Assembly: GCA_045590755.1 (NCBI GenBank)
Contig: JAZNRP010000024.1
Span: 127,083-151,082 of the forward strand
DNA: 24,000 bases
Direction: 5' to 3'
Origin: Acutalibacteraceae bacterium
GTDB taxonomy: Bacteria; Bacillota; Clostridia; Oscillospirales; Acutalibacteraceae
The position numbers and the translations under genes are program-made. Position 1 is the first letter of the stretch, and the number at the start of each line of letters is the position of its first letter. Below are positions 2,652-14,912 of this stretch, one piece after another. The notes beneath the pieces were generated by a model. The model was not told where the DNA came from. It was given only the letters and a program-made list of their open reading frames with translations, and did no database searches.

Positions 2652-5600
2652 ATGGCAACGCAAAAGATTACGCAGAAACAGCAGACCGAAAATGTCAATC
2701 CTGATGCGAGTCTGCTCGTTACTCAAAAGGAGAACGTCGAAGGCGTGGAGATGGAAGCCCTTCGCCGTGCTACCTTAGAAGCGGTTGTAAACGCTTTGCG
2801 TGAAAAAGGTATCAATGACGGATACCAAACAGAACAGGGTATCGTAGATATGTACCCGAACCTCGTTAAAAGCATTGACCCGATTGAAACGGGTATCCGC
2901 ATTTCGTTTTGGGACGAAACCTCGATGGATATTCCGATTGAAAGTGGTGGCTTGGCTTTCGATGAGGTCTCCTACAATCAGGAAACGGGCTATTTACACA
3001 TTATGCTCGAAGGTGAGGATGTTGTGGCTCCGTGCTATATCGGAGGTGGCGGTGGCGGAGGTTCATCGTCCGGTACGGTCGTAAAGGTTACGAATACGAC
3101 AGGTGCCGCATCCTTGACAGTTGCTCACGGAGAGCCTGTAGAAATCAGCTTCACATACTACGACTATGACGGAGACGGAGAGTTTACCAACAGTAGCGGT
3201 ACGCTCGAAATCTCTGTAAACAGCAATGTCGTTATTCAGAAGAATATCGAGCAGGGTGCTCACACCTACGATGTCGGTCCATATTTGACGGCAGGCTCGA
3301 ACAAAATCAAAGTCAAGGTTACTGACGAAGACGATATGTACGGTATGAAGACTTGGACCGTAAATGCGGTTGCTTTGTCTATCAGTTCCGTGTTCGATGA
3401 TACCGTTGTAAACGAAGGTGATGTTACTTTCCGTTACACGCCTATCGGTGCGAACATTGAGAAGACCGTCCATTTCGAGATTGATGGAGAAGAGGCTGCT
3501 ACCGCAATCGTTACCGCCTCGAACCGTCAGCAGACACAAATTATCCCTGCACAGTCTCACGGTGCTCATCCGTTAAAGGTATATATCACCGCCGAGGTTG
3601 ATGGCGTGGCTGTAACGAGTAATATTCTTGAATACGATGTAATTTGGGTTGAAGAAGGAAACGACACGCTTATCTTCGCTTGCAGTTTCAACGATAAGGT
3701 GAAACAATACAGCACCGTGCTCATCCCTTGGATTGCCCACAATCCTACGAGTTTGACCTCTAATGTAGAACAGTATATCGAAGGTGAGTTGCACGCCAAC
3801 CTTACGGTTGGCAGAAACGTGCAATATTGGAGTTATAAGCCGACCACGCCGGGCAACAAAACCCTTATGCTTAAAAGCGGAGATGTTGAAAAAACCATCA
3901 TCGTTCCCGTTGAGGACATTGGTATTACCGTTGAGCCTGTTACGAACGGTCTCGTTATGGACCTCAACCCCGCAGGTCATACCAACAGCGATGACGACAA
4001 GGAGCAGTTCGGTTACACAGACGCAAACGGTGTGAACCATCCGTTGGTATTCTCGCCCAACTTCGATTGGGTGAACGGTGGTTTCCAAACGGACGCAGAC
4101 GGCGGCACATACCTCTGTGTTAAGTGCGGAACCTATGTAGAACTCGACCGCAGTTTGTTCGATACCGATGTTATTGCAAACGGTAAAGAAATCAAGGCGG
4201 TCTTCCGTGCTGCCAAATGCCGTGATTATGATGCTCAGGTAATGAGCTGTATCAGCGGAGGCATCGGCTTGGTGCTTCAGGCACAGAAAGCCACCCTAAA
4301 ATCCTTGCAGACCACCCTCGAAGTTCCTTACTGCGAAGACAGTATGATTGAGATGGATGTCAACATCGAGCCCGGCTCAAAGGACAATGTAATGATGGTA
4401 TGGCTCGAAGGTGTACCGTCAAGAGTTGCCATTTATCCTGATGAGAACGAAGATTTCACTCAGGATAACCCGACTCCGCTTGTCATCGGCTCGAACGACT
4501 GCGATGTGCATATTTACCGCATCAAAGTCTATGATAACGACCTCACACAGTACGAAATCCACGAAAATTGGATTGCGGACGCTCCTAACGGCGAAGAGAT
4601 GGTGAACCGTTACAACCGTAACAACATCTACGACCAAAACGGAGACATTGACGTACAGAAGCTCATCACTCAGAACCCGAATTTGAGAGTGCTCGAAATC
4701 ACGGCACCCAAGATGACTACGGGTAAAGAAGATGAAGTTACCTGTACCGTAAAGCACACCTACGGAGCAGGCGGTAAAGCCCATAAGTTCGTGGGCGAAG
4801 GCGTTATTATGAAAGCTCAGGGTACATCGTCTATGCAGTATGGTACTGCGGCGTACAACCTTGACCTTGAATTCCCGAACGGCTTCGAGTTCGATGACGG
4901 AACCACTCAGGGATATTACAGTATGACTGCCAACAGTATCGGCGTAAACTACTTCAACATTAAGTTGAATGTTGCTTCATCCGAAAACGCTAACAACGTC
5001 ATTATGGCGGCAGAATACAACGATTTCCAACCGTACCTGAACCCCGCAAGAGTGGCGAACCCCAAGGTGAGAGATACCGTAGAGGGTCAGCCTTGTGTTG
5101 TTTTCTTCACGAACAGCAGCGAGGAGACCATTCAGGTAGGTGCTTTGACCGCAGAACCCGGACAGACCATTATGTACGGTTGTGGGGATATGAACAACTC
5201 CAAGAAAAACTTTGCCGTATTCGGTCAGCAGGATAACCCCGTTCAGGCTTGTGTTGAGATAATGAACAACACGAACAACCCTTGTTTGTGGAAGAGCGAC
5301 GACCTCACAGATGAACTGTGGGACGGCGAGGGGTCTTTCGAGTTCAGATACCCGAAGAAGCCTACCGCCGAGCATAAAGCCGCTTTTCAGCGTGTGCTGT
5401 CTTGGGTAGTATCTACCGACAGAACTGCCGCAACGGGTGCTACGCTCGCTCAGGCGGTTGAATATGACGGTGTTACCTACACCACAGACACAGCCGAGTA
5501 TCGTGCGGCTAAGTTCGTTGCAGAGCTCGAAGATTATTTCATCAAGGACTCTGTACTGTATCATTACCTGTTCACCGAAAGACATTCGATGGTTGATAAC

Positions 5601-8600
5601 CGTGCTAAGAACGTGTTCGTATCCACCGATGACGGTATCCATTGGGACTTCACAAAAGACTACGATAACGATACCGCAGACGGAAACGATAACGAAGGCG
5701 GCTTGACCTTGACCTATGGCTTGGAAGACATCGACACCATCGGTACAAAAGATGTTTTCAACGCATCGAGCTCGGTTCTTTGGTGCAACGTAAGAGACCT
5801 GCTCTTCGATGATTTGCAGTCTCTCTATCAGACCCTCGAAACCAAGGGTGCTTGGAATGCTCAGCGTATTCTTGCTCGTTTCAACGCTTATCAGGCGGCA
5901 AGACCTGAAGCCCTAATCATCGAGGATATGTGGAAGAAGTATATCAAGCCCTTTACCGTCTTAGGAAATGACGGCTACCTGAAGATGCTTTACGGCACCA
6001 AGAAAGACCAAAGAAATCAGTTCGAGGTCTATCAGGAGAAGTACATTTCGAGTAAGTATCAGGGCTCTGCGGCTACTTCCGATACGATTACTTTCCGTGC
6101 ATACACGCCTACGAATTGGGCGGGTGTTGTTCCGAGTAAGGAGATGGAGATTACTCCGTATGCGGATATGTATGTAACGGTTAAGTCCGGTTCCGGCATC
6201 GCAAGAGAAAGAGCAAAGAGAGGTCAGAAAGTTACCTTGACCTGTCCTATCGACACCCTTAACGATACCGAAATCTATATCTACAACGCATCGAACATCG
6301 CAGATGTTGGTGATATTGCACCGCTTTATGTAGGTTACTTCAACATCGCTATGGCGACCAAGTTGAGACACTTGAAACTCGGCGACGGTGCGGATGGATA
6401 CAACAACACGAACGCCGAAAGCATTGGTGTTGGCAACAACGAACTGCTTGAAACCTTGGATATTAGGAACTGTCCTATGATAAGAGTATCGCTTGACTTG
6501 ACAGGATGCGATGCTCTTTCTTCTTTGGAGGCAGAGTGCGACAACTACGTACCTACCGATGCGGATGACGTTCCCGGTATCACAGGTGTAGCGTTCGCTC
6601 CCGGTGGCAAGATTGAGACCGCTCACTTGCCGACCGTAACGGCGTTCTCCGCTCGTGAGTTGAAGAGCCTCGAAGACTTGACATTCACAAGCCTCGACAG
6701 ACTCCGTTCGTTGAGAATTGAGAACTGCGGCACCATTGATGCTCTCGAAATCATTCAGAACACAATGCCTGAGAGCGAGGAAGATACAAAAGGCTTGACG
6801 AGAGCCCGTATCCTCGGCATCAGTTGGATACTGAACGACAGTAACGCTGATGTTCTCGACTACTTGGTAGAGTTGAAGGGCTTGAACGAAAGCGGTGCAA
6901 ACTCCGACCAATCGGTTGTTACCGGATACGCTTATGTTCCTACTATGAAAGCATCCGAGTTGAACGCTTATAGAGCGGCTTGGGGCTTCGACCTCGAACT
7001 CGAATGGCAGAGTTACGTAGAGCAGTATCTCGTAACGTTCGTCAACTACGATGGAAGCACGTTGCACACTCAGTATGTTGACCGTGGTATGGCGGCAGTT
7101 GACCCCGTTGAAGCGGGTATAATCGGCGAGCCTACAAGAGAAAGTTCCGTATCTACCGTTTACACCTACAACGGATGGGACAGCAGTTTGGCAAATATCA
7201 CGTCTGCGAAGACTGTTACGGCAACCTATGAAGAGTCGCTGAGACAGTACACAGTAAGATGGATTTCTCAGCTTGGCGTTATCCTCGAAACACAGACCGT
7301 AGGATACGGTCAATCGGCAACCTACACGGGCGATATTCCCACTCGAACCGATGAGGAGAGCTCGAAGATTTACCATCTGTTCAAGGGATGGAAACAGAGC
7401 ACCGGATACATCACGGGCGACCTCGATGTATGGGCTGATTGGGAGGATGGTTATGAACCCTCCGAAATCGTGGATACGCAGACACTCAATGCTGCACAGT
7501 TGTACGGATTTACCAAGGCAGGAAACGCTAAGAACTTCCTGTCTGTAAAGGACCGTGTGTTGATTACACTTGGTTTTGACCCCGACTACGACAATGTCGA
7601 TTATGTCGATTTGATTGAGGAACCTACCGTCCTTGACGGTGCTACCTGTATCGAGACCGAATTGCAACCGTTTAAGGACGGCATTGCAGACGGATGGACT
7701 CTTGTTGTGGACTGCGAATTCGATGAGACCACAGCAGACCAAACGATGGTATGTTGTATGCAGGAAAGCGGATATATGGGCTTCAAGGTCAAATATACGG
7801 GTGGTCCCTCGGTACAATGGTCCACCAACAGTTACAACAGCGGTGCTACGACCTACCGTGAGATTATGGTTATCCGTCATCTCCCCGGAAGTCGAAATGT
7901 TATCGTTTATTCCTCGAAAGCCTATGAGACGGCTATCGGTTACAAGGAATTGACGAAGACCATTGACACCCTCACAAATGCCAAGTTGTATATCGGTGCT
8001 ACCGTTACGGATGGCGGCGATATAGGCAACTACGCAACGGGTACACTCTACTCCCTGAGATTTTGGAAGGGCGACCTCGGGGATGCCGACTGCCGTAAGA
8101 TTGTTTCGTGGCCCCGAGAGACCTACACCTTTGAAGTGGGCGGTTTCGAGAACTATATACTCTCTGCCAACTCTGTTGAGAAGACGAGCGTGGATTTCAT
8201 CTGTGCTTCACTTCTCGAAAGAACCAAGCAGATGAACACAACCAATAGCAACGCAGGCGGCTTTGCAAATATGCCGATTTTCTCTTGGTTGCAGGGCAGA
8301 CTCTACGATGCTTTCCCGACTGTTTGGCGTAACTTTATGAAGCAGAGTGTTATCAACTACAACTGCTACGTAAACGGTACAGACTCAGACATTCAGGAGT
8401 GCGATGCTTATGTATGGCTCCCGTCCTATATCGAAATGCAGGGCGGTACGGCAGAACCGTGGATTTACGAGGGTAATTGGGTTACGTTCTTTACGAACAA
8501 TACCACTCGTTTGAAGTGGCAAGGTCATTGCCTCGCAAGAGACGTTGACGGCGGCTATCAGACATTCAGCCAAAGCACAGACCCCGCTACCGACACAACG

Positions 8601-8822
8601 AAGAATGTCAGAGATGGAGACCTGTGGATACACACAGGCGAGTCTTCTCGTGGTTATCTCCGTGTCAACGGCAAGTGGCTTGCCTCGTATAACTATTGGC
8701 TTCGTGGAGCCTCGGTCACTTACTCGACGGCCTTCTGCATTGTGTACTACTACGGCGGCGTGAACTACGGCGGCTACAACGCCAACTACAGCAGTGGCGT
8801 GTGCCCCCGCTTCTCAATCTAA
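2652..8822 (+). CDS. Giant (2056 aa) multidomain tail fibre / receptor-binding protein; DGR target (variable protein) with the VR at its extreme C-terminus
   Basis: An uninterrupted 6.2-kb ORF with RBS aaggggg upstream. It has a Gly/Ser linker (3042-3071) and several adhesin-type domain signatures, detailed in the findings. The last 47 codons contain the VR, which matches the downstream TR. Confidence 0.85.
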   Translation: MATQKITQKQQTENVNPDASLLVTQKENVEGVEMEALRRATLEAVVNALREKGINDGYQTEQGIVDMYPNLVKSIDPIETGIRISFWDETSMDIPIESGGLAFDEVSYNQETGYLHIMLEGEDVVAPCYIGGGGGGGSSSGTVVKVTNTTGAASLTVAHGEPVEISFTYYDYDGDGEFTNSSGTLEISVNSNVVIQKNIEQGAHTYDVGPYLTAGSNKIKVKVTDEDDMYGMKTWTVNAVALSISSVFDDTVVNEGDVTFRYTPIGANIEKTVHFEIDGEEAATAIVTASNRQQTQIIPAQSHGAHPLKVYITAEVDGVAVTSNILEYDVIWVEEGNDTLIFACSFNDKVKQYSTVLIPWIAHNPTSLTSNVEQYIEGELHANLTVGRNVQYWSYKPTTPGNKTLMLKSGDVEKTIIVPVEDIGITVEPVTNGLVMDLNPAGHTNSDDDKEQFGYTDANGVNHPLVFSPNFDWVNGGFQTDADGGTYLCVKCGTYVELDRSLFDTDVIANGKEIKAVFRAAKCRDYDAQVMSCISGGIGLVLQAQKATLKSLQTTLEVPYCEDSMIEMDVNIEPGSKDNVMMVWLEGVPSRVAIYPDENEDFTQDNPTPLVIGSNDCDVHIYRIKVYDNDLTQYEIHENWIADAPNGEEMVNRYNRNNIYDQNGDIDVQKLITQNPNLRVLEITAPKMTTGKEDEVTCTVKHTYGAGGKAHKFVGEGVIMKAQGTSSMQYGTAAYNLDLEFPNGFEFDDGTTQGYYSMTANSIGVNYFNIKLNVASSENANNVIMAAEYNDFQPYLNPARVANPKVRDTVEGQPCVVFFTNSSEETIQVGALTAEPGQTIMYGCGDMNNSKKNFAVFGQQDNPVQACVEIMNNTNNPCLWKSDDLTDELWDGEGSFEFRYPKKPTAEHKAAFQRVLSWVVSTDRTAATGATLAQAVEYDGVTYTTDTAEYRAAKFVAELEDYFIKDSVLYHYLFTERHSMVDNRAKNVFVSTDDGIHWDFTKDYDNDTADGNDNEGGLTLTYGLEDIDTIGTKDVFNASSSVLWCNVRDLLFDDLQSLYQTLETKGAWNAQRILARFNAYQAARPEALIIEDMWKKYIKPFTVLGNDGYLKMLYGTKKDQRNQFEVYQEKYISSKYQGSAATSDTITFRAYTPTNWAGVVPSKEMEITPYADMYVTVKSGSGIARERAKRGQKVTLTCPIDTLNDTEIYIYNASNIADVGDIAPLYVGYFNIAMATKLRHLKLGDGADGYNNTNAESIGVGNNELLETLDIRNCPMIRVSLDLTGCDALSSLEAECDNYVPTDADDVPGITGVAFAPGGKIETAHLPTVTAFSARELKSLEDLTFTSLDRLRSLRIENCGTIDALEIIQNTMPESEEDTKGLTRARILGISWILNDSNADVLDYLVELKGLNESGANSDQSVVTGYAYVPTMKASELNAYRAAWGFDLELEWQSYVEQYLVTFVNYDGSTLHTQYVDRGMAAVDPVEAGIIGEPTRESSVSTVYTYNGWDSSLANITSAKTVTATYEESLRQYTVRWISQLGVILETQTVGYGQSATYTGDIPTRTDEESSKIYHLFKGWKQSTGYITGDLDVWADWEDGYEPSEIVDTQTLNAAQLYGFTKAGNAKNFLSVKDRVLITLGFDPDYDNVDYVDLIEEPTVLDGATCIETELQPFKDGIADGWTLVVDCEFDETTADQTMVCCMQESGYMGFKVKYTGGPSVQWSTNSYNSGATTYREIMVIRHLPGSRNVIVYSSKAYETAIGYKELTKTIDTLTNAKLYIGATVTDGGDIGNYATGTLYSLRFWKGDLGDADCRKIVSWPRETYTFEVGGFENYILSANSVEKTSVDFICASLLERTKQMNTTNSNAGGFANMPIFSWLQGRLYDAFPTVWRNFMKQSVINYNCYVNGTDSDIQECDAYVWLPSYIEMQGGTAEPWIYEGNWVTFFTNNTTRLKWQGHCLARDVDGGYQTFSQSTDPATDTTKNVRDGDLWIHTGESSRGYLRVNGKWLASYNYWLRGASVTYSTAFCIVYYYGGVNYGGYNANYSSGVCPRFSI
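8676..8815 (+). repeat. DGR variable repeat (VR)
   Basis: It aligns without gaps to 9726-9865 at an offset of exactly 1050 nt, with 122 of 140 positions identical. Of the 18 mismatches, 17 fall where the TR has A (VR has T x9, G x6, C x2). The one non-A mismatch (8811) is at the 3' end. Confidence 0.93.
8796..8815 (+). promoter_or_regulatory. Putative IMH (initiation of mutagenic homing) at the 3' end of VR
   Basis: The GC-rich 3' end of VR, ggcgtgtgcccccgcttctc, compares with ggcgtgtgcccccgactctc in TR. It contains the only non-adenine VR/TR difference (8811 T vs 9861 C), as expected for an IMH versus IMH* pair. The boundaries are inferred. Confidence 0.45.
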
Positions 8823-8846
8823 AAGGCGTAAGCCGTACTCTTATAA

Positions 8847-8873
8847 ATCTGCCCTGCGTGAGTCAGGGCAGAT
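8847..8873 (+). promoter_or_regulatory. Perfect 10-bp stem / 7-nt loop hairpin just downstream of VR (candidate DGR target-recognition hairpin/cruciform; might also act as a weak terminator)
   Basis: The sequence is atctgccctg-cgtgagt-cagggcagat. It starts 32 nt after the VR end and 25 nt after the stop codon. No T-run follows it. Confidence 0.55.
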
Positions 8874-8900: not shown

Positions 8901-9695
8901 ATGTCAGTACATCGTAGCGACCGTAAGATAGCCTTTATGGAGTTTGTAAGGCAGATGTCGAGATTACACCGCCATACTCACGAACGGTTGAGGTCGCTCC
9001 CGGCAAGGTACAAACGGTACATCGTACCGAAAATCAGTCGTCCACTCAACACGGCATACAGTTCGGTCATCCTCGCAAATGAACAGAACGCAAGAACGGC
9101 TCTCGGTGCTCGGCAACGGGCGATGCTTTTCGATAGGGCTATAAAATGCCTGAAAGAAATGCAAGAGCCGTTGTTTGCTGTATGGAATTTGCTCGATGTT
9201 ACCGAGTCGGGCTGTGATTATTGGATTGAAATGATTAACTATGAATTCGCCTTGCTTTATGGCGTTGCGAAATTGGAAGGAAAACCGCCGATGTTTTTTA
9301 CGATACCTCGGAGAAAGATTGAAAAACTGAACTTCTTGAAAAAGATGTGTGAACTGCATAAGTACACCTATCAGAAACTCGGTCACGCTCCTGAATATAC
9401 CCGTGAGGGCATCGGCGAACCTATCTCGAAGTTCATCAACAACGCTCTGTTTAATGTGTTCGATGCGAATAATATCGTGCCGACCACTCAGGCAGAGGCG
9501 GATAAAAGGGCGAAACGGTTTCAAGCGGCGGTTGACTCGCTCAACGCCTTGCAGACTCCGCTCCTTGCTCTTTGGAACATTATGGATTACAGCGAAAACA
9601 TAATGGATGAATGGTCGGGTCTTCTTGATGAAGAGCTTCGGCTCCTCGAAGGCTTGAAGAAAGCCGACAGGGAGCGATACAAAAATCTTCGGTGA
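8901..9695 (+). CDS. avd: Avd-like accessory variability determinant (four-helix-bundle type), tandemly duplicated (264 aa)
   Basis: It sits between VR and TR, exactly where avd sits in canonical DGRs. The protein is basic and predicted to be all-helical. Its two halves align with each other (RKIAFMEFVRQMSRLHRHTHERL vs RKIEKLNFLKKMCELHKYTYQKL; LKEMQEPLFAVWNLLDV vs LNALQTPLLALWNIMDY). RBS ggaaagga lies 9 nt upstream. Confidence 0.7.
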   Translation: MSVHRSDRKIAFMEFVRQMSRLHRHTHERLRSLPARYKRYIVPKISRPLNTAYSSVILANEQNARTALGARQRAMLFDRAIKCLKEMQEPLFAVWNLLDVTESGCDYWIEMINYEFALLYGVAKLEGKPPMFFTIPRRKIEKLNFLKKMCELHKYTYQKLGHAPEYTREGIGEPISKFINNALFNVFDANNIVPTTQAEADKRAKRFQAAVDSLNALQTPLLALWNIMDYSENIMDEWSGLLDEELRLLEGLKKADRERYKNLR

Positions 9696-9725
9696 AAGGA
9701 GAATATGGGCGGTATTCTATCATCT

Positions 9726-9865
9726 TGGCTTGCCTCGAATAACTATTGGCTTCGTGGAGCCTCGGTCACTAACTCGACGAACTTCTGCAATGTGAACAAC
9801 AACGGCAACGTGAACAACAACGGCAACAACGCCAACAACAGCAATGGCGTGTGCCCCCGACTCTC
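9726..9865 (+). repeat. DGR template repeat (TR)
   Basis: This is the intergenic copy of VR. By my count it holds 40 adenines, concentrated in 17 AAC/AAT codons when read in the VR frame. All but one of its differences from VR are at its adenines. Confidence 0.93.
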
Positions 9866-10140
9866 GTAATTAAAGTAACCAAGAATGAGGGTGAAACAAT
9901 CGAATTATGAGAAGGAGAATACAGCCCTCCGGGAGAGACACCCGGTAAATAAATGACCGTTCTGCTTCAAGGACGGTGCACCACGTCCGGTGCCGCAGTT
10001 ATAGACGGGAGGACGCTTCTTGCATAGCGGTAAAATGTCCGCCTTTTGCCGTTTTATTCCCGTGGCTATATACCCGATATAATCTGACGGAAACTCCGAA
10101 AACGGTTGATTGCCGCAATGGAGAACTATAACAAATCGGG
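9866..10140 (+). ncRNA. TR-to-RT spacer, probably part of the DGR template/priming RNA
   Basis: This 275-nt stretch has no credible ORF and lies between TR and the RT start. It contains short GC-rich stem-loops that exclude one another (ggacg/cgtcc 9971-9988; gcacc/ggtgc 9978-9993) and a cggtaaaa/ttttgccg hairpin (10028-10051). The function is assumed by analogy with the Bordetella phage BPP-1 spacer RNA. Confidence 0.35.
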
Positions 10141-11382
10141 ATGTGCGTAGGCGAACTATATCTTATGAGCAATCAAGAAAGAATTCAGGCTCGAATTGCC
10201 CGTGATAAAGCAAGGAAAGCCGCTAAAAGACAGGCTGCCGTCGAGAAACACGGCACCTATGAAAATGTTATAACCCTGCAAAACCTGCACCGTTCTCTGC
10301 GGAAACGCCGAAAGAACGTGGAATGGAAAGGCAGCGTTCAATCGTACCTCGCTCACGCTATCGTAAAGATAAAACGGTCGAAGGACGAACTGCTTCGTGG
10401 AGAAGTCAATATCAACAGAGCGATAAAGCGAATGACTATCTATGAGAGAGGCAAACGCCGAGATATTCACGCCATTATGATTGACAGCCGTGTCATTCAA
10501 GGTGTGCTTTGTGATGCTTCAATCACTCCGCTTACTCAGCCCTCGCTGATATACGATAACCCTGCGAGCACCAAGCATAAGGGCATATCTCACGCCCGAA
10601 ACCGCATATTGAAGATGCTCCGTGAGCAGATAAAGCGAAGCGGACCGAATTCGTATGCTTTACTTACCGACTATACCGGATTTTTTGACAGTATTCCCCA
10701 CGCAGTTTGCAAGGAGAAGTTGAAAAAGGCAGGTATGGACGATAGACTGTGCGACCTAACGATGTCGTATATCAAGATGTATCAGGCTCAGGACTATTCG
10801 TTTATCGAAGACCCCGTAGAGCGTGAGCAAATGTATATCAAACTCGCCAACGATGAGGACTCGGGAGCCACCCTCGGAAGTCAGATTTCGCAGGATATGG
10901 CTTTGGTTGTCCCGAACGATGTGGACCACGCTGTCAAAGATAGGTGCGGTATGAAAGGCTACATTCGGTATATGGATGATAGTTATACCGGGCACGGCGA
11001 CAAGCAGGTTCTTCAGGCGGTTTATGATGTCATCAAACAGGAGAGCAACGCCATCGGCTTGAAACTGAACGAAAAGAAGACCCATATCGTGAAGTTTACG
11101 AGAGGCTTTATGTTCCTGAAGGTGCATTACATCGTTACCGACACAGGCAAAATCATCAAGAAAATGGCAAAGGCAGGAATTGTCCGTATGAGGCGTAAGC
11201 TGAAGAAGTTTGTTCGTCTCGTACAGCAAGGTAAGATGCGGATGGACGATGTTTTCAACTCGTTCAACTCTTGGAGGGGCAACGCCAAGAAGTATTCGCA
11301 ATCGTACAGAGCAAGAAAGGCTATGCTTGTTCTGTATAACAAGTTGTTCAAACGATACAGAACGGGAGGTATAGCAGCGTGA
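10141..11382 (+). CDS. DGR-type reverse transcriptase
   Basis: RT motifs are present: LLTDYTGFFDSIPH (motif A), LGSQISQ (the DGR-typical SQ motif B), YMDD (motif C) and GFMFLK (motif E). The N-terminal NLHRSLRKRRKNVEWKGSVQSY and IYERGKRRDIHAIMIDSRVIQGVL resemble DGR RT finger motifs. The start is uncertain: ATG 10141 or in-frame ATG 10165, and neither has a clear SD. Confidence 0.9.
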   Translation: MCVGELYLMSNQERIQARIARDKARKAAKRQAAVEKHGTYENVITLQNLHRSLRKRRKNVEWKGSVQSYLAHAIVKIKRSKDELLRGEVNINRAIKRMTIYERGKRRDIHAIMIDSRVIQGVLCDASITPLTQPSLIYDNPASTKHKGISHARNRILKMLREQIKRSGPNSYALLTDYTGFFDSIPHAVCKEKLKKAGMDDRLCDLTMSYIKMYQAQDYSFIEDPVEREQMYIKLANDEDSGATLGSQISQDMALVVPNDVDHAVKDRCGMKGYIRYMDDSYTGHGDKQVLQAVYDVIKQESNAIGLKLNEKKTHIVKFTRGFMFLKVHYIVTDTGKIIKKMAKAGIVRMRRKLKKFVRLVQQGKMRMDDVFNSFNSWRGNAKKYSQSYRARKAMLVLYNKLFKRYRTGGIAA

Positions 11383-11867
11383 ATTACTATAAGATTATCG
11401 AAAACGGTACGGTTATTGATGCGAACTGCATTTTCCTGAAATGGCAGAAGAAGAACAATATCCTTATCGGTTGCGATGCTTCGGAGGCGAACTTCATTCA
11501 GTCGTCCGACCAACAGAAAGTTTGGAAGGTCGATTGGCTCATTCCCGCCGATGCAAAAGCAGGTGAATACCCGTCTATCGAGGCGGTCGAAATCACCAAG
11601 GAAGAATATGACGAACTCAGGGCTCAGCTCGATGCAGGACTTAACCCCGAAGTCCCCGAAGAAGAGCCCGAAATCCCCTCGGATACTGATGAGCCGGGAG
11701 ATGAAGTTCCATCCGAGCCTGTGATGAGTGTCGAAGAAATGAGACGCAAAATCACGATGTTGGAGACTGCTCTTGAAGAGCAGAAAATCATCAACGGTGA
11801 GCAGATGGAGAGGAATGATTTCCTCGAAGGCTGTTTGCTTGAAATGTCGGAAATCGTCTATGGTTAG
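11379..11867 (+). CDS. Hypothetical protein (acidic, coiled-coil C-terminus; possibly an XkdW-like tail-fibre-associated protein)
   Basis: Its GTG start overlaps the RT stop (GTGA), with gggagg 10 nt upstream. It is 162 aa with an acidic Pro/Glu-rich linker and the C-terminal sequence LEGCLLEMSEIVYG. Confidence 0.6.
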   Translation: MNYYKIIENGTVIDANCIFLKWQKKNNILIGCDASEANFIQSSDQQKVWKVDWLIPADAKAGEYPSIEAVEITKEEYDELRAQLDAGLNPEVPEEEPEIPSDTDEPGDEVPSEPVMSVEEMRRKITMLETALEEQKIINGEQMERNDFLEGCLLEMSEIVYG

Positions 11868-13064: not shown

Positions 13065-14912
13065 ATGACTAATTTGGAATTAGCCAACAAACTGATTGAC
13101 ATTGCCAAAAATGTTAAGACCCTTTATGTTATGGGAGGTATCGGCTATCCGCTTAATGCTAAGGGAAAGCAGAGAGCGTATAAGAACTCTTGGAATACCG
13201 ACCCGGACAGAGTGAAATTCATCGAAGCAGCATCGGACGACACTTTCGCTTTCGACTGTGTCTGCCTCATCAAGAGCGTGCTTTGGGGGTTCGTTGCAGA
13301 CCCCTCAAAGACCTATGGTGGTGCTGTGTATAAGGCAAACGGTGTCCCGGACATCGGTGCTGACACGATGATTACCAAATGCTCCGACATCTCTACCGAT
13401 TTCAGCAAGATTGAAATTGGTGAAGCTGTTTGGATGAAAGGTCATATCGGCGTATATGTAGGAAATGGTCTCGCCGTCGAGTGTACGCCTATTTGGGGGA
13501 ATGATGTGCAACTGACCGCCTGCAACTGCTCAAAGAGTGGTTACAACCGCCGTAATTGGACGAAGCACGGCAAGTTACCCTACATTACCTACGAAAATCA
13601 GGCAGTAGCAGAACCTACGCCTGACAAAAATACCCCTACCCTCAAAGAGATGTCCGCTGCGGATGCCGAAAAGGCGTTCTACAAGTATTTGACCGAAACT
13701 TTGGGGCTGAATTGTGCCGCCGCTTGTGGCGTTCTCGCCAACATCGCCGCCGAGTCAGCGTTCAGGTCCACCAACTTGCAGAACACCTACGAGAAGAAGC
13801 TCGGCTACACCGACACCGAATACACCCTTGCCGTAGATAACGGTTCTTACGATAATTTCGTAAAGGATGCCGCAGGCTATGGCTTCGCACAATGGACCTA
13901 TTGGAGCCGCAAGCAGAAGTTGCTTGAATTTGCCAAGAGCAAAGGCAAGTCTATCGGCGATGCCGAGATGCAGATGCAGTTCTTCGGTCAGGAAATCAAG
14001 GGCTATTCGGGCGTTTGGAAGACCTTGCAGAGCGTTCCTAACACCGCAGAGGGTGCCTACGAAGCAGGTCATAAGGTCTGCTACGATTATGAGGCTCCCG
14101 CCGCTAAGCAGACATCCGCTGTTACTCGTGGCAATAGTGCTAAGACCTACTTTGCGAAGTACGGCGGTTCTGCCGCTTCTTCCGGCAATGCAGGTTCTAC
14201 CGAAAAGCCTGTCGAGAGCGTTGATTATGCTATCGGCGACAAGGTGTATGTCAACGGTAAGATTTACGCCTACGGCAACGGCAAGGGCAACTCCTTGACA
14301 AAGAATAACGCAACGATGTATGTTTGCGATATTGTCGATAAGAAGACCTATCCTCACTACATCGGCGTTTCTGCCATCAAGGGCGGCACAAGACAGGGTT
14401 GGGCTAAGCCTGATATTCTGTCTAAGAGCAGTTCTGTTGCTCCCGCTAAGCCGACTACGACCACGAAGCCCACTACGACCGCAAAACCCGCCGAGACTGC
14501 TCCTGCTACGGGCTATGTCAACTACACGGTTGTCGGTGGTGATAACCTCACCAAAATTGCGGCTAAATTCAAGACCACCATCGCAAAGATTGTGGCGGCG
14601 AACAATATCAAGGATGCCAACAAGATTTGGGCGGGACAGGTGCTCAAAATCCCCTCTGCCTCTGCATCCGCATCGTCCAACGCAACGCCGACTGTCAATA
14701 AGACCTTTGCAAAAGGCGACGCAGTTATCGTTAATGGTACGATTACCGGATACGGCAACGGAGGTGGCGGTAGCATTGTAAAGAAAGGTGTAAGGATGTT
14801 CGTTTGCGACATCGTGGACTCCTCGACCTACAAGAACTACATCGGCGTTTCCGCTTATAAAGGCGGAGCCCGTCAGGGTTGGGCGAACCCGTCCATCTTG
14901 AAGAAAGCGTAA
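13065..14912 (+). CDS. Multidomain endolysin: NlpC/P60-like cysteine peptidase + phage-lysozyme2-type glycosidase + repeat / LysM / repeat cell-wall-binding region
   Basis: RBS gaaggagg. The peptidase motifs are the Cys motif FAFDCVCLIKS and the His motif KGHIGVYVGNG. The second domain (GVLANIAAESAF, GYGFAQWTYWSRKQKLLEFAK) is typical of phage tail lysozyme-type domains. A LysM lies at about 14515-14655 (YTVVGGDNLTKIAAKF, GQVLKIP). It is flanked by two copies of a roughly 70-aa repeat (14218-14427 and 14698-14909). Confidence 0.85.
   Translation: MTNLELANKLIDIAKNVKTLYVMGGIGYPLNAKGKQRAYKNSWNTDPDRVKFIEAASDDTFAFDCVCLIKSVLWGFVADPSKTYGGAVYKANGVPDIGADTMITKCSDISTDFSKIEIGEAVWMKGHIGVYVGNGLAVECTPIWGNDVQLTACNCSKSGYNRRNWTKHGKLPYITYENQAVAEPTPDKNTPTLKEMSAADAEKAFYKYLTETLGLNCAAACGVLANIAAESAFRSTNLQNTYEKKLGYTDTEYTLAVDNGSYDNFVKDAAGYGFAQWTYWSRKQKLLEFAKSKGKSIGDAEMQMQFFGQEIKGYSGVWKTLQSVPNTAEGAYEAGHKVCYDYEAPAAKQTSAVTRGNSAKTYFAKYGGSAASSGNAGSTEKPVESVDYAIGDKVYVNGKIYAYGNGKGNSLTKNNATMYVCDIVDKKTYPHYIGVSAIKGGTRQGWAKPDILSKSSSVAPAKPTTTTKPTTTAKPAETAPATGYVNYTVVGGDNLTKIAAKFKTTIAKIVAANNIKDANKIWAGQVLKIPSASASASSNATPTVNKTFAKGDAVIVNGTITGYGNGGGGSIVKKGVRMFVCDIVDSSTYKNYIGVSAYKGGARQGWANPSILKKA

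Follow-up and report, generated by a model that had tools for sequence, protein, structure and literature searches.

Does the 24,000-nucleotide (nt) stretch analysed here, from an Acutalibacteraceae bacterium (GenBank assembly GCA_045590755.1, contig JAZNRP010000024.1, positions 127,083 to 151,082 of the forward strand; hereafter the window), carry a diversity-generating retroelement (DGR), and is that element still rewriting the gene it serves? The question is raised by two long repeats, a variable repeat (VR) at the end of a very large open reading frame (ORF) and a template repeat (TR) near a reverse transcriptase (RT) gene, which differ almost exclusively where the TR has an adenine. A first-pass annotation had read this pattern as the mark of an element that has been active. 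Our analysis leaves us nearly certain that this locus holds a complete DGR, recently and probably still active, which belongs to a tailed phage infecting gut Clostridia. All of its features lie on the plus strand, in the order target gene with VR, an element resembling the initiation of mutagenic homing (IMH) site, hairpin, Avd-type accessory gene, TR, structured spacer RNA and RT. In the scheme of Wu et al. (PMC5758913), the order target-VR, avd, TR and RT corresponds to the canonical architecture B1.

The repeat finder returned a single long direct repeat of 140 nt, at 8676–8815 and 9726–9865 (offset 1050, ungapped, 87% identity), and so reproduced the gap-free alignment proposed earlier. 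A base-by-base count over the 140 nt gave 18 VR/TR mismatches; apart from a C>T at 8811 they lie at TR adenines, 17 in all (nine A>T, six A>G and two A>C). All 17 positions in the first-pass annotation and their spectrum were recovered. Adenines make up 40 of the 140 TR bases, and the hypergeometric probability that at least 17 of 18 mismatches fall on them is 4.2e-10. The mismatches at 8810 (A>C) and 8811 (C>T) were found in the same form in every related element, including those at about 50% protein identity. The boundary in all relatives reads CGCTTCTC on the VR side and CGA[C/T]T[C/T]TC on the TR side; in its longer form, the VR side is always CGCTTCTCAATCT and the TR side CGA(C/T)T(C/T)TC(G/A)TAA. 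Because identical side-specific bases recur in every related element, the aligned sequences place 8810 and 8811 at the start of a fixed divergence between IMH and its TR-side counterpart, IMH*, and make them neither mutagenesis events nor an exception to adenine specificity. The earlier figure of 17 adenine changes thus holds as a count of differences, and as mutagenesis events only 16 of them stand. Within the mutagenised tract of 134 nt (8676–8809), 16 of 16 changes fall on the 39 adenines of the TR (p = 1.9e-10). No second VR was detected in the window, where an adenine-masked 27-mer, with up to three mismatches allowed, matched these two copies only.

The VR encodes, in frame, the last 49 amino acids (aa) of the 2056-aa target ORF. 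Translated in the target frame, the TR reads WLASNNYWLRGASVTNSTNFCNVNNNGNVNNNGNNANNSNGVCPRLS and contains 17 Asn codons (AAC/AAT), of which 13 are recoded in the VR, in agreement with the counts and with both translations given in the first-pass annotation. The adenines of these codons occupy codon positions 1 and 2, and each of the 17 codons is therefore open to 15 amino acids and never to a stop; no stop codon can be reached from any TR codon by adenine mutation. The earlier annotation was right that stops are avoided, while its repertoire of about 15^17 (roughly 1e20) proved too small. We computed about 2.5e22 protein sequences, with 4^39, or about 3e23, at the DNA level. The repertoire exceeds 15^17 (9.9e19) because adenines are also present in ACT, ACG, AGC, TAT and GGA codons. 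An ORF of 54 aa with an ATG start (9705–9869) spans the TR and shares the reading frame of the VR; this is probably no gene but a by-product of the TR copying coding sequence.

Evidence on the timing of the changes came from close relatives. The window's own lineage was defined as a cluster of accessory proteins at 90% identity or higher (13 members), whose contigs, from independent samples, gave 10 VR-bearing and eight TR-bearing copies. The TR was the same as that of the window in seven of the eight, while the VRs fell into seven distinct alleles. Each allele carried 14–26 changes relative to the TR, all at adenines, and the 13–26 differences between any two alleles were likewise every one at a TR adenine. 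The seven alleles together hold 118 changes, of which 49 are A>G, 48 A>T and 21 A>C; variation was seen at 34 of the 39 TR-adenine sites and at none of the 95 non-adenine sites. Identity to the window was 98.4–98.8% in the accessory region, 99.0–99.5% over the 2.8 kb downstream of the TR (92% in one contig, L019), 95.4–95.7% in the target upstream of the VR (84% in L019) and 82–87% in the VR itself. The RT, accessory and target ORFs were intact in all close copies. Since seven alleles sit on near-identical flanks and an identical TR, VR turnover is much faster than background divergence. These data bear out the activity claimed in the first-pass annotation. It had named, as the observation that would speak against its reading, homologous phages with one and the same VR and no variation at adenine sites; the homologues found here differ in VR, and at TR adenines only.

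One VR allele recurs identically in four independent assemblies (L010, L012, L013 and L014), and for this reason we take the alleles to be real haplotypes and not assembly noise. In L010 alone, the G/C run of the TR carries a C>A (position 3954 of that locus); the VR of L010 keeps the C, and the three other assemblies that share its VR allele have the normal TR. Seven of the 12 accessory-gene contigs (L014–L018, L020) are only about 1 kb long, each starting within the VR and stopping within the TR at shared k-mers. We considered these breaks as a sign of VR heterogeneity within samples and rejected that explanation; the ends are k-mers common to VR and TR, an effect of repeat assembly. Such breaks at VR/TR repeats will systematically fragment DGR loci in short-read assemblies. 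A nucleotide search of deposited phage genomes with the 3.1-kb cassette gave no match, nor did an exact-pattern scan of viral contigs with the adenine-masked VR/TR motif. A scan of metagenome contigs with the accessory alignment gave 278 pattern matches, none of which was confirmed.

The same behaviour was seen at greater distance. The more distant relatives are L002 (a Ruminococcus sp. metagenome-assembled genome (MAG) from goat colon), L003 (a Clostridia MAG from buffalo colon), L005 and L001 (IMG/VR contigs) and L006, and all carry the same cassette, each with its own TR. VR/TR differences lay at adenines in 12 of 13 cases in L002, 20 of 20 in L003, 16 of 16 in L005 and 7 of 7 in the L001 fragment; the L006 VR, compared with the L003 TR, had 19 of 19. 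Between L002 and L003 the flanks are 91–95% and the TRs 95% identical and the VRs 78%, with the excess differences at TR-adenine sites. The parts of the element in the window are collected in Table 1.

Table 1. Parts of the DGR and the adjoining ORF in the window, with the evidence for each.
Feature	Position	Strand	Evidence or description
DGR target gene, 2056-aa tail-fibre/receptor-binding-type protein	2652–8822	+	ORF list; matches to phrog_14959 and phrog_24896
C-terminal DUF6273 domain (aa 1860–2056), VR at its very end	8229–8819	+	Pfam PF19789, E = 1.4e-7
VR, mutagenised tract, 134 nt	8676–8809	+	16/16 differences from TR at TR adenines; 7 alleles in close relatives
IMH-like element	8796–8835	+	14-nt G/C-rich run GGCGTGTGCCCCCG (8796–8809, also in TR), then VR-specific CTTCTCAATCTAAAAGGCG...
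Hairpin 3' of VR	8847–8873	+	ATCTGCCCTG / loop CGTGAGT / CAGGGCAGAT; DNA fold -15.6 kcal/mol, z = -4.3
Accessory gene, 264-aa tandem double Avd-like protein, isoelectric point (pI) 9.46	8901–9695	+	Match to PHROG 'Avd protein of DGR'
TR, 134 nt, 39 adenines, 17 AAY codons	9726–9859	+	Identical in 7/8 close relatives while VRs differ
IMH* (TR-side counterpart), ACTCTCGTAATTAAAGTAACC...	9860–9885	+	Diverges from IMH exactly after the G/C run; kept across loci
Structured spacer RNA, Rfam RF03077 (RT-2 RNA)	9861–10172	+	54.5 bits against a gathering score of 40
Spacer segment GACGGGAGGACGCT	10004–10017	+	RNAalifold consensus: pairs with the TR 3' end, 9846–9861
DGR RT, 405 aa	10165–11382	+	RVT_1, 7e-15; phrog_1423, 1.5e-58; LGSQISQ and (R)YMDD
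162-aa acidic ORF, overlapping the RT stop codon	11379–11867	+	60% identity to the L002 ORF at the same position, E = 8e-57

The RT was assigned its start at Met 10165 on the evidence of relatives and gene callers; the longest ORF begins at 10141. As judged from its predicted protein, it has the signs of the DGR clade, namely [I/L/V]GxxxSQ in place of QGxxxSP, YxDD and homology to Brt, the RT of phage BPP-1. In BLASTP it was 24% identical to Brt over about 300 residues (E = 2e-15), being 77 aa longer than that protein. Brt residues R74, I181 and Q187, which contact the incoming nucleotide in the cryo-electron microscopy structure (bioRxiv 10.1101/2023.10.23.563531), align to R, L and Q in the RT of the window. 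The best match in the PDB was 8ub7_A, a 328-aa 'Reverse transcriptase' (E = 9e-11), in which the aligned residues are the same as those of BPP-1 Brt.

Between the TR and the RT gene lies the structured RNA, and it probably supplies the cis elements for priming and for binding of RT and Avd. The structured RNAs compared here lie at 9861–10172 in the window, at 3200–3423 in L022 and at 2750–2882 in L008. RF03077 stands directly 3' of the TR in L001, L002, L003 and L005 (66–70 bits) and between the Avd and RT genes of Roseburia phage Shimadzu (145 bits), whereas BPP-1 has RF03022 ('Phage_DGR') at the equivalent position. From its place between TR and RT in the window, in four relatives and in Shimadzu it follows that RT-2 is the spacer RNA of a Clostridia-phage DGR clade. 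Rfam lists RT-2 only as a small RNA, and the motif thereby gains a role as the TR-proximal spacer RNA of this clade. Our literature searches on the RT-2 motif gave nothing relevant. RNAalifold on six loci recovered two spacer stems with genuine compensatory changes, and GACGGGAGGACGCT was the most conserved segment of the spacer. Its predicted pairing with the TR 3' end (10004–10017 with 9846–9861) makes a candidate analogue of the template-primer duplex between TR and spacer (Sp) in BPP-1.

The other cis elements are also shared. The IMH-like element is kept in six loci that are elsewhere 50–60% identical in protein, and by analogy with BPP-1 we infer that 8796–8835 would function as the IMH. 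A functional direction from IMH to IMH* is supported indirectly, by a TR that appears invariant in the aligned copies against a VR that varies. The stretch between the target stop codon and the hairpin at 8847–8873 is strongly conserved. The hairpin itself is kept in six loci, among which one pair shows a compensatory exchange of T:A for C:G, and it is a candidate target-recognition hairpin or cruciform. It was also considered as a terminator and rejected as such, having no T-tail and not being called by terminator prediction.

The accessory protein is built of two halves of about 130 aa each, which are 35% identical over 101 aa (E = 4e-20) and align in hhalign at 99.4% (E = 5.5e-21, 119 columns). 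The L003 gene still keeps an internal DNA repeat with a spacing of 390 nt. The C-terminal half matched phrog_3206, 'Avd protein of DGR', at 1.2e-8 (BPP-1 Avd itself matches the same PHROG at 9e-29) and the 136-aa single-domain Avd of Shimadzu in hhalign at 85% (E = 6e-6). For the N-terminal half, the PHROG match was at E = 0.25 and that to the Shimadzu Avd was not significant; it is far more diverged from canonical Avd than the C-terminal half. The whole protein had no significant match among PDB sequences, Pfam, NCBIfam or BPP-1 Avd, and the PHROG and Shimadzu matches are the two that make the link to Avd. Homologues formed 81 clusters, almost all of 263–266 aa, and a tblastn search of deposited phage genomes found none. 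In the literature searched we found no description of a fused or tandem double Avd, and Wu et al. (PMC5758913) note two avd genes in just one DGR, where they are separate.

Avd has been described as a homopentameric barrel bound to RT and spacer RNA (bioRxiv 10.1101/2023.10.23.563531). A five-bundle ring is impossible to build from whole chains of the accessory protein, because each chain carries an even number of fused domains. We offer tentatively, as somewhat less than an even bet, the idea that the covalently fused tandem double Avd of this DGR clade means a different stoichiometry or an asymmetric, sub-functionalised assembly. If that were so, this clade would have a naturally occurring variant form of the DGR reverse-transcription ribonucleoprotein. 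How widely the pentameric Avd–RT–RNA architecture applies is a question on which the family has a bearing, and one of interest to those who engineer DGRs for targeted mutagenesis. Only in this fused double Avd-like protein does the element depart from the described DGR pattern.

We then come to what the element diversifies. Upstream of the target, the ORFs have PHROG matches to the baseplate wedge, baseplate and tail-fibre families. On related contigs, too, gene callers gave a target of 2056 aa with DUF6273. The Pfam domain scored 32 bits against a cut-off of 23.5, and DUF6273 is a published DGR target domain (PMC11792537, PMC10743442). An AlphaFold2 (AF2) model of aa 1830–2056 (227 residues) reached a mean predicted local distance difference test (pLDDT) of 91.5 and a predicted template-modelling (TM) score of 0.88. 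It was made with a 32-sequence alignment from an exhaustive search of representatives; an eight-sequence alignment had given a pLDDT of 42. The VR segment scored above 90 and was modelled mainly as beta-strand, at 186–191, 198–202, 208–214, 218–220 and 224–226. In BFVD, the structural neighbours of the model come from phage tail and receptor-binding proteins with DUF6273 (E as low as 2.4e-8, TM 0.5–0.6), and Foldseek with the DUF6273 model returned no match to the Mtd fold (C-type-lectin class). The only near-significant fold match in the PDB to the model (8139–8819) was 9qa6, an immunoglobulin A (IgA) peptidase of Thomasclavelia ramosa (E = 0.05, TM 0.49); this structural similarity hints at a DUF6273-like domain in a gut bacterial IgA protease.

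The exhaustive profile search with the VR-bearing domain returned 276 representative clusters (E <= 1e-3); narrower searches had given one match, with the target C-terminus as protein query, and seven, with a profile. Many of the 276 representatives are proteins of 2000–2700 aa with the domain at the extreme C-terminus, and the giant-fibre architecture is therefore recurrent. In the 32-sequence family alignment, entropy averaged 2.76 bits over the 17 Asn-templated columns and 1.60 bits over the other VR columns (Mann-Whitney p = 1e-5). R189 and G206 were invariant in that alignment, and W180 and F199 nearly so. The residues YWLRGAS and GVCP were unchanged across the seven VR alleles, so that the constant scaffold described in the first-pass annotation is seen among the alleles and, at W180, R189, F199 and G206, across the family. 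The commonest residues at Asn-templated positions in the seven alleles were Tyr (34), Asn (32), Gly (16) and Ser (12), in keeping with the Tyr and Gly richness noted earlier; mutational bias, selection or both may lie behind these counts. One 2681-aa family member, P0029, ends in ...NVNTNGNPNNNNNASNVNGVCP, an almost unmutated Asn-rich VR, and from its sequence this C-terminus looks like a 'naive' copy of its own template.

Could the VR/TR differences be explained without an active DGR? One alternative is a decayed DGR, in which the differences record ancient mutagenic homing by an element that is now dead. A single VR/TR pair cannot separate old from recent events, and L002 has a non-adenine G>A difference of the type that accumulates after inactivation. 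Such a relic is nevertheless hard to reconcile with seven VR alleles that share an identical TR and cassette flanks of 98.4–99.5% identity, or with RT, accessory and target ORFs that are intact in all copies together with the catalytic motifs, and we regard it as very improbable. Another possibility is that ordinary duplication, gene conversion or tail-fibre recombination made the two repeats differ, and that the adenine bias is due to chance or base composition. Tail-fibre genes are recombination hot spots, and in the control region, the target upstream of the VR, the extra divergence is centred on a mosaic patch at about 5901–6500, which is about 13% divergent from the otherwise about 98% identical L009–L011. 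The patch suggests recombination between tail-fibre alleles, independent of the DGR. Its changes are dominated by transitions and are mostly synonymous (80 synonymous against 24 non-synonymous codons), a spectrum opposite to that of the VR. The hypergeometric probability of about 1e-10 for the window alone, the 0 of 95 non-adenine sites varying over seven alleles, and the position of the TR in a non-coding context beside an RT and a DGR spacer RNA leave this explanation a negligible chance. Enzymatic editing or deamination of adenine in DNA or RNA, in place of error-prone reverse transcription, would account for the confinement of the changes to adenines. It predicts A>G only, whereas A>T (48) was as good as level with A>G (49) in the pooled changes and A>C contributed a further 21; the locus, moreover, has a DGR-clade RT, an invariant template copy and a DGR spacer RNA. 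We give it hardly any credence.

Several points weigh against the reading of the locus as a complete and active DGR. We infer its retrohoming activity here from the diversity of alleles, and a VR assembled from metagenomes may, in principle, represent a consensus or a chimera of haplotypes. For the target, the receptor-binding role is read from gene context and domain family, that is, from its position after baseplate and fibre genes and from the published and structural associations of DUF6273. The pairing of TR and spacer is kept by two C>U changes on the TR side, which give G-U pairs, and shows no double-compensatory change. Finally, neither accessory half matches Pfam bAvd (PF22296) or BPP-1 Avd directly, and the fused double domain has no obvious fit to the homopentameric Avd barrel.

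On the reading of an active DGR, the element would work as BPP-1 does (bioRxiv 10.1101/2023.10.23.563531, PMC5758913). The transcript of TR and spacer would fold, with the TR 3' end pairing with the spacer. The RT and the Avd-type protein would then bind this transcript, and synthesis of complementary DNA (cDNA) would be primed in cis. The RT would copy C, G and U faithfully and misincorporate opposite A, and the mutagenised cDNA would replace the VR, the 3' junction being set by the G/C run, the IMH and the hairpin and the 5' junction by VR/TR homology. The outcome would be about 1e22 possible receptor-binding tips on the constant scaffold W..YWLRGAS..F.V..G..A..GVCP. The likely use of this diversification is adaptation of host-receptor recognition.

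BPP-1 (mtd-VR/avd/TR/brt; GenBank AY029185) is among the closest known systems. It has the same gene order, and its annotated VR1 and TR are 134 nt, as in the window. In both elements the VR closes the 3' end of a tail-fibre gene of receptor-binding type, the TR is rich in AAY codons, a G/C run precedes IMH or IMH*, an inverted repeat lies 3' of the VR, and a structured spacer separates TR and RT. Both accessory proteins are basic (pI 9.46 for the Avd-like protein of the window and 9.55 for the Avd of BPP-1), and the equivalent RT residues described above are shared. Besides the low RT identity and the different spacer RNA family, they are set apart by the target, which has DUF6273 and not Mtd and is 2056 aa long against 381 aa, and by the accessory protein, which is a fused double domain with 264 aa in place of 128 and does not match Pfam bAvd.

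The closest annotated RT is that of Roseburia phage Shimadzu (LR596903, orf22–orf24), with 35% identity over 93% of the length. The neighbourhood is alike as well (baseplate J, tail protein, tail-fibre target, Avd, RT, then endolysin), as are the RT-2 spacer RNA and a host that also belongs to the gut Clostridia. Shimadzu differs in having a 431-aa target and a single 136-aa Avd that aligns only to the C-terminal half of the accessory protein of the window. Targets with DUF6273, and with the VR at its C-terminus, are also found in the Faecalibacterium prophages Lelie, CP11, Roos and Pioen (PMC11792537). Of the 'tentaclin' phages nd4 and nd12 (PMC10743442), the RTs are 27–30% identical to that of the window. 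Published AF2 models of DUF6273 targets (PMC11792537; PMC10743442) show the VR as a beta-hairpin at the surface, with loops on either side, and our model likewise has strands at 198–202, 208–214 and 218–220 within the VR. In the published cases the targets are small or DUF6273 is N-terminal (nd4_tgt1, nd12_tgt1), while in the window the domain caps the C-terminus of a protein about 2000 aa long. A double Avd is mentioned neither in PMC11792537 ('avd', 0 occurrences) nor in PMC10743442.

Downstream of the RT, the 162-aa ORF at 11379–11867 is syntenic in all relatives. It had no Pfam, PHROG or NCBIfam match, and it may be a further DGR accessory gene or the next phage gene. A 615-aa endolysin with Phage_lysozyme2 and LysM domains (13065–14912) lies downstream of the DGR, as in Shimadzu, and the DGR is thus placed between the tail-fibre and lysis modules.

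As far as sequence comparison shows, the phage lineage has no close relative that is cultured or annotated; among annotated RTs the nearest is the 35% identical one of Shimadzu. Related prophage-like copies are present in Clostridia MAGs from ruminant gut. The mechanism is that of a textbook DGR, and the locus is a well-documented addition to a known kind of system that introduces no new principle. With its seven VR alleles on a near-constant background and 0 of 95 non-adenine sites changed, it is an unusually clean natural demonstration of DGR activity. DGR dynamics in animal guts could be studied with this lineage of uncultured Clostridia phages as a model.

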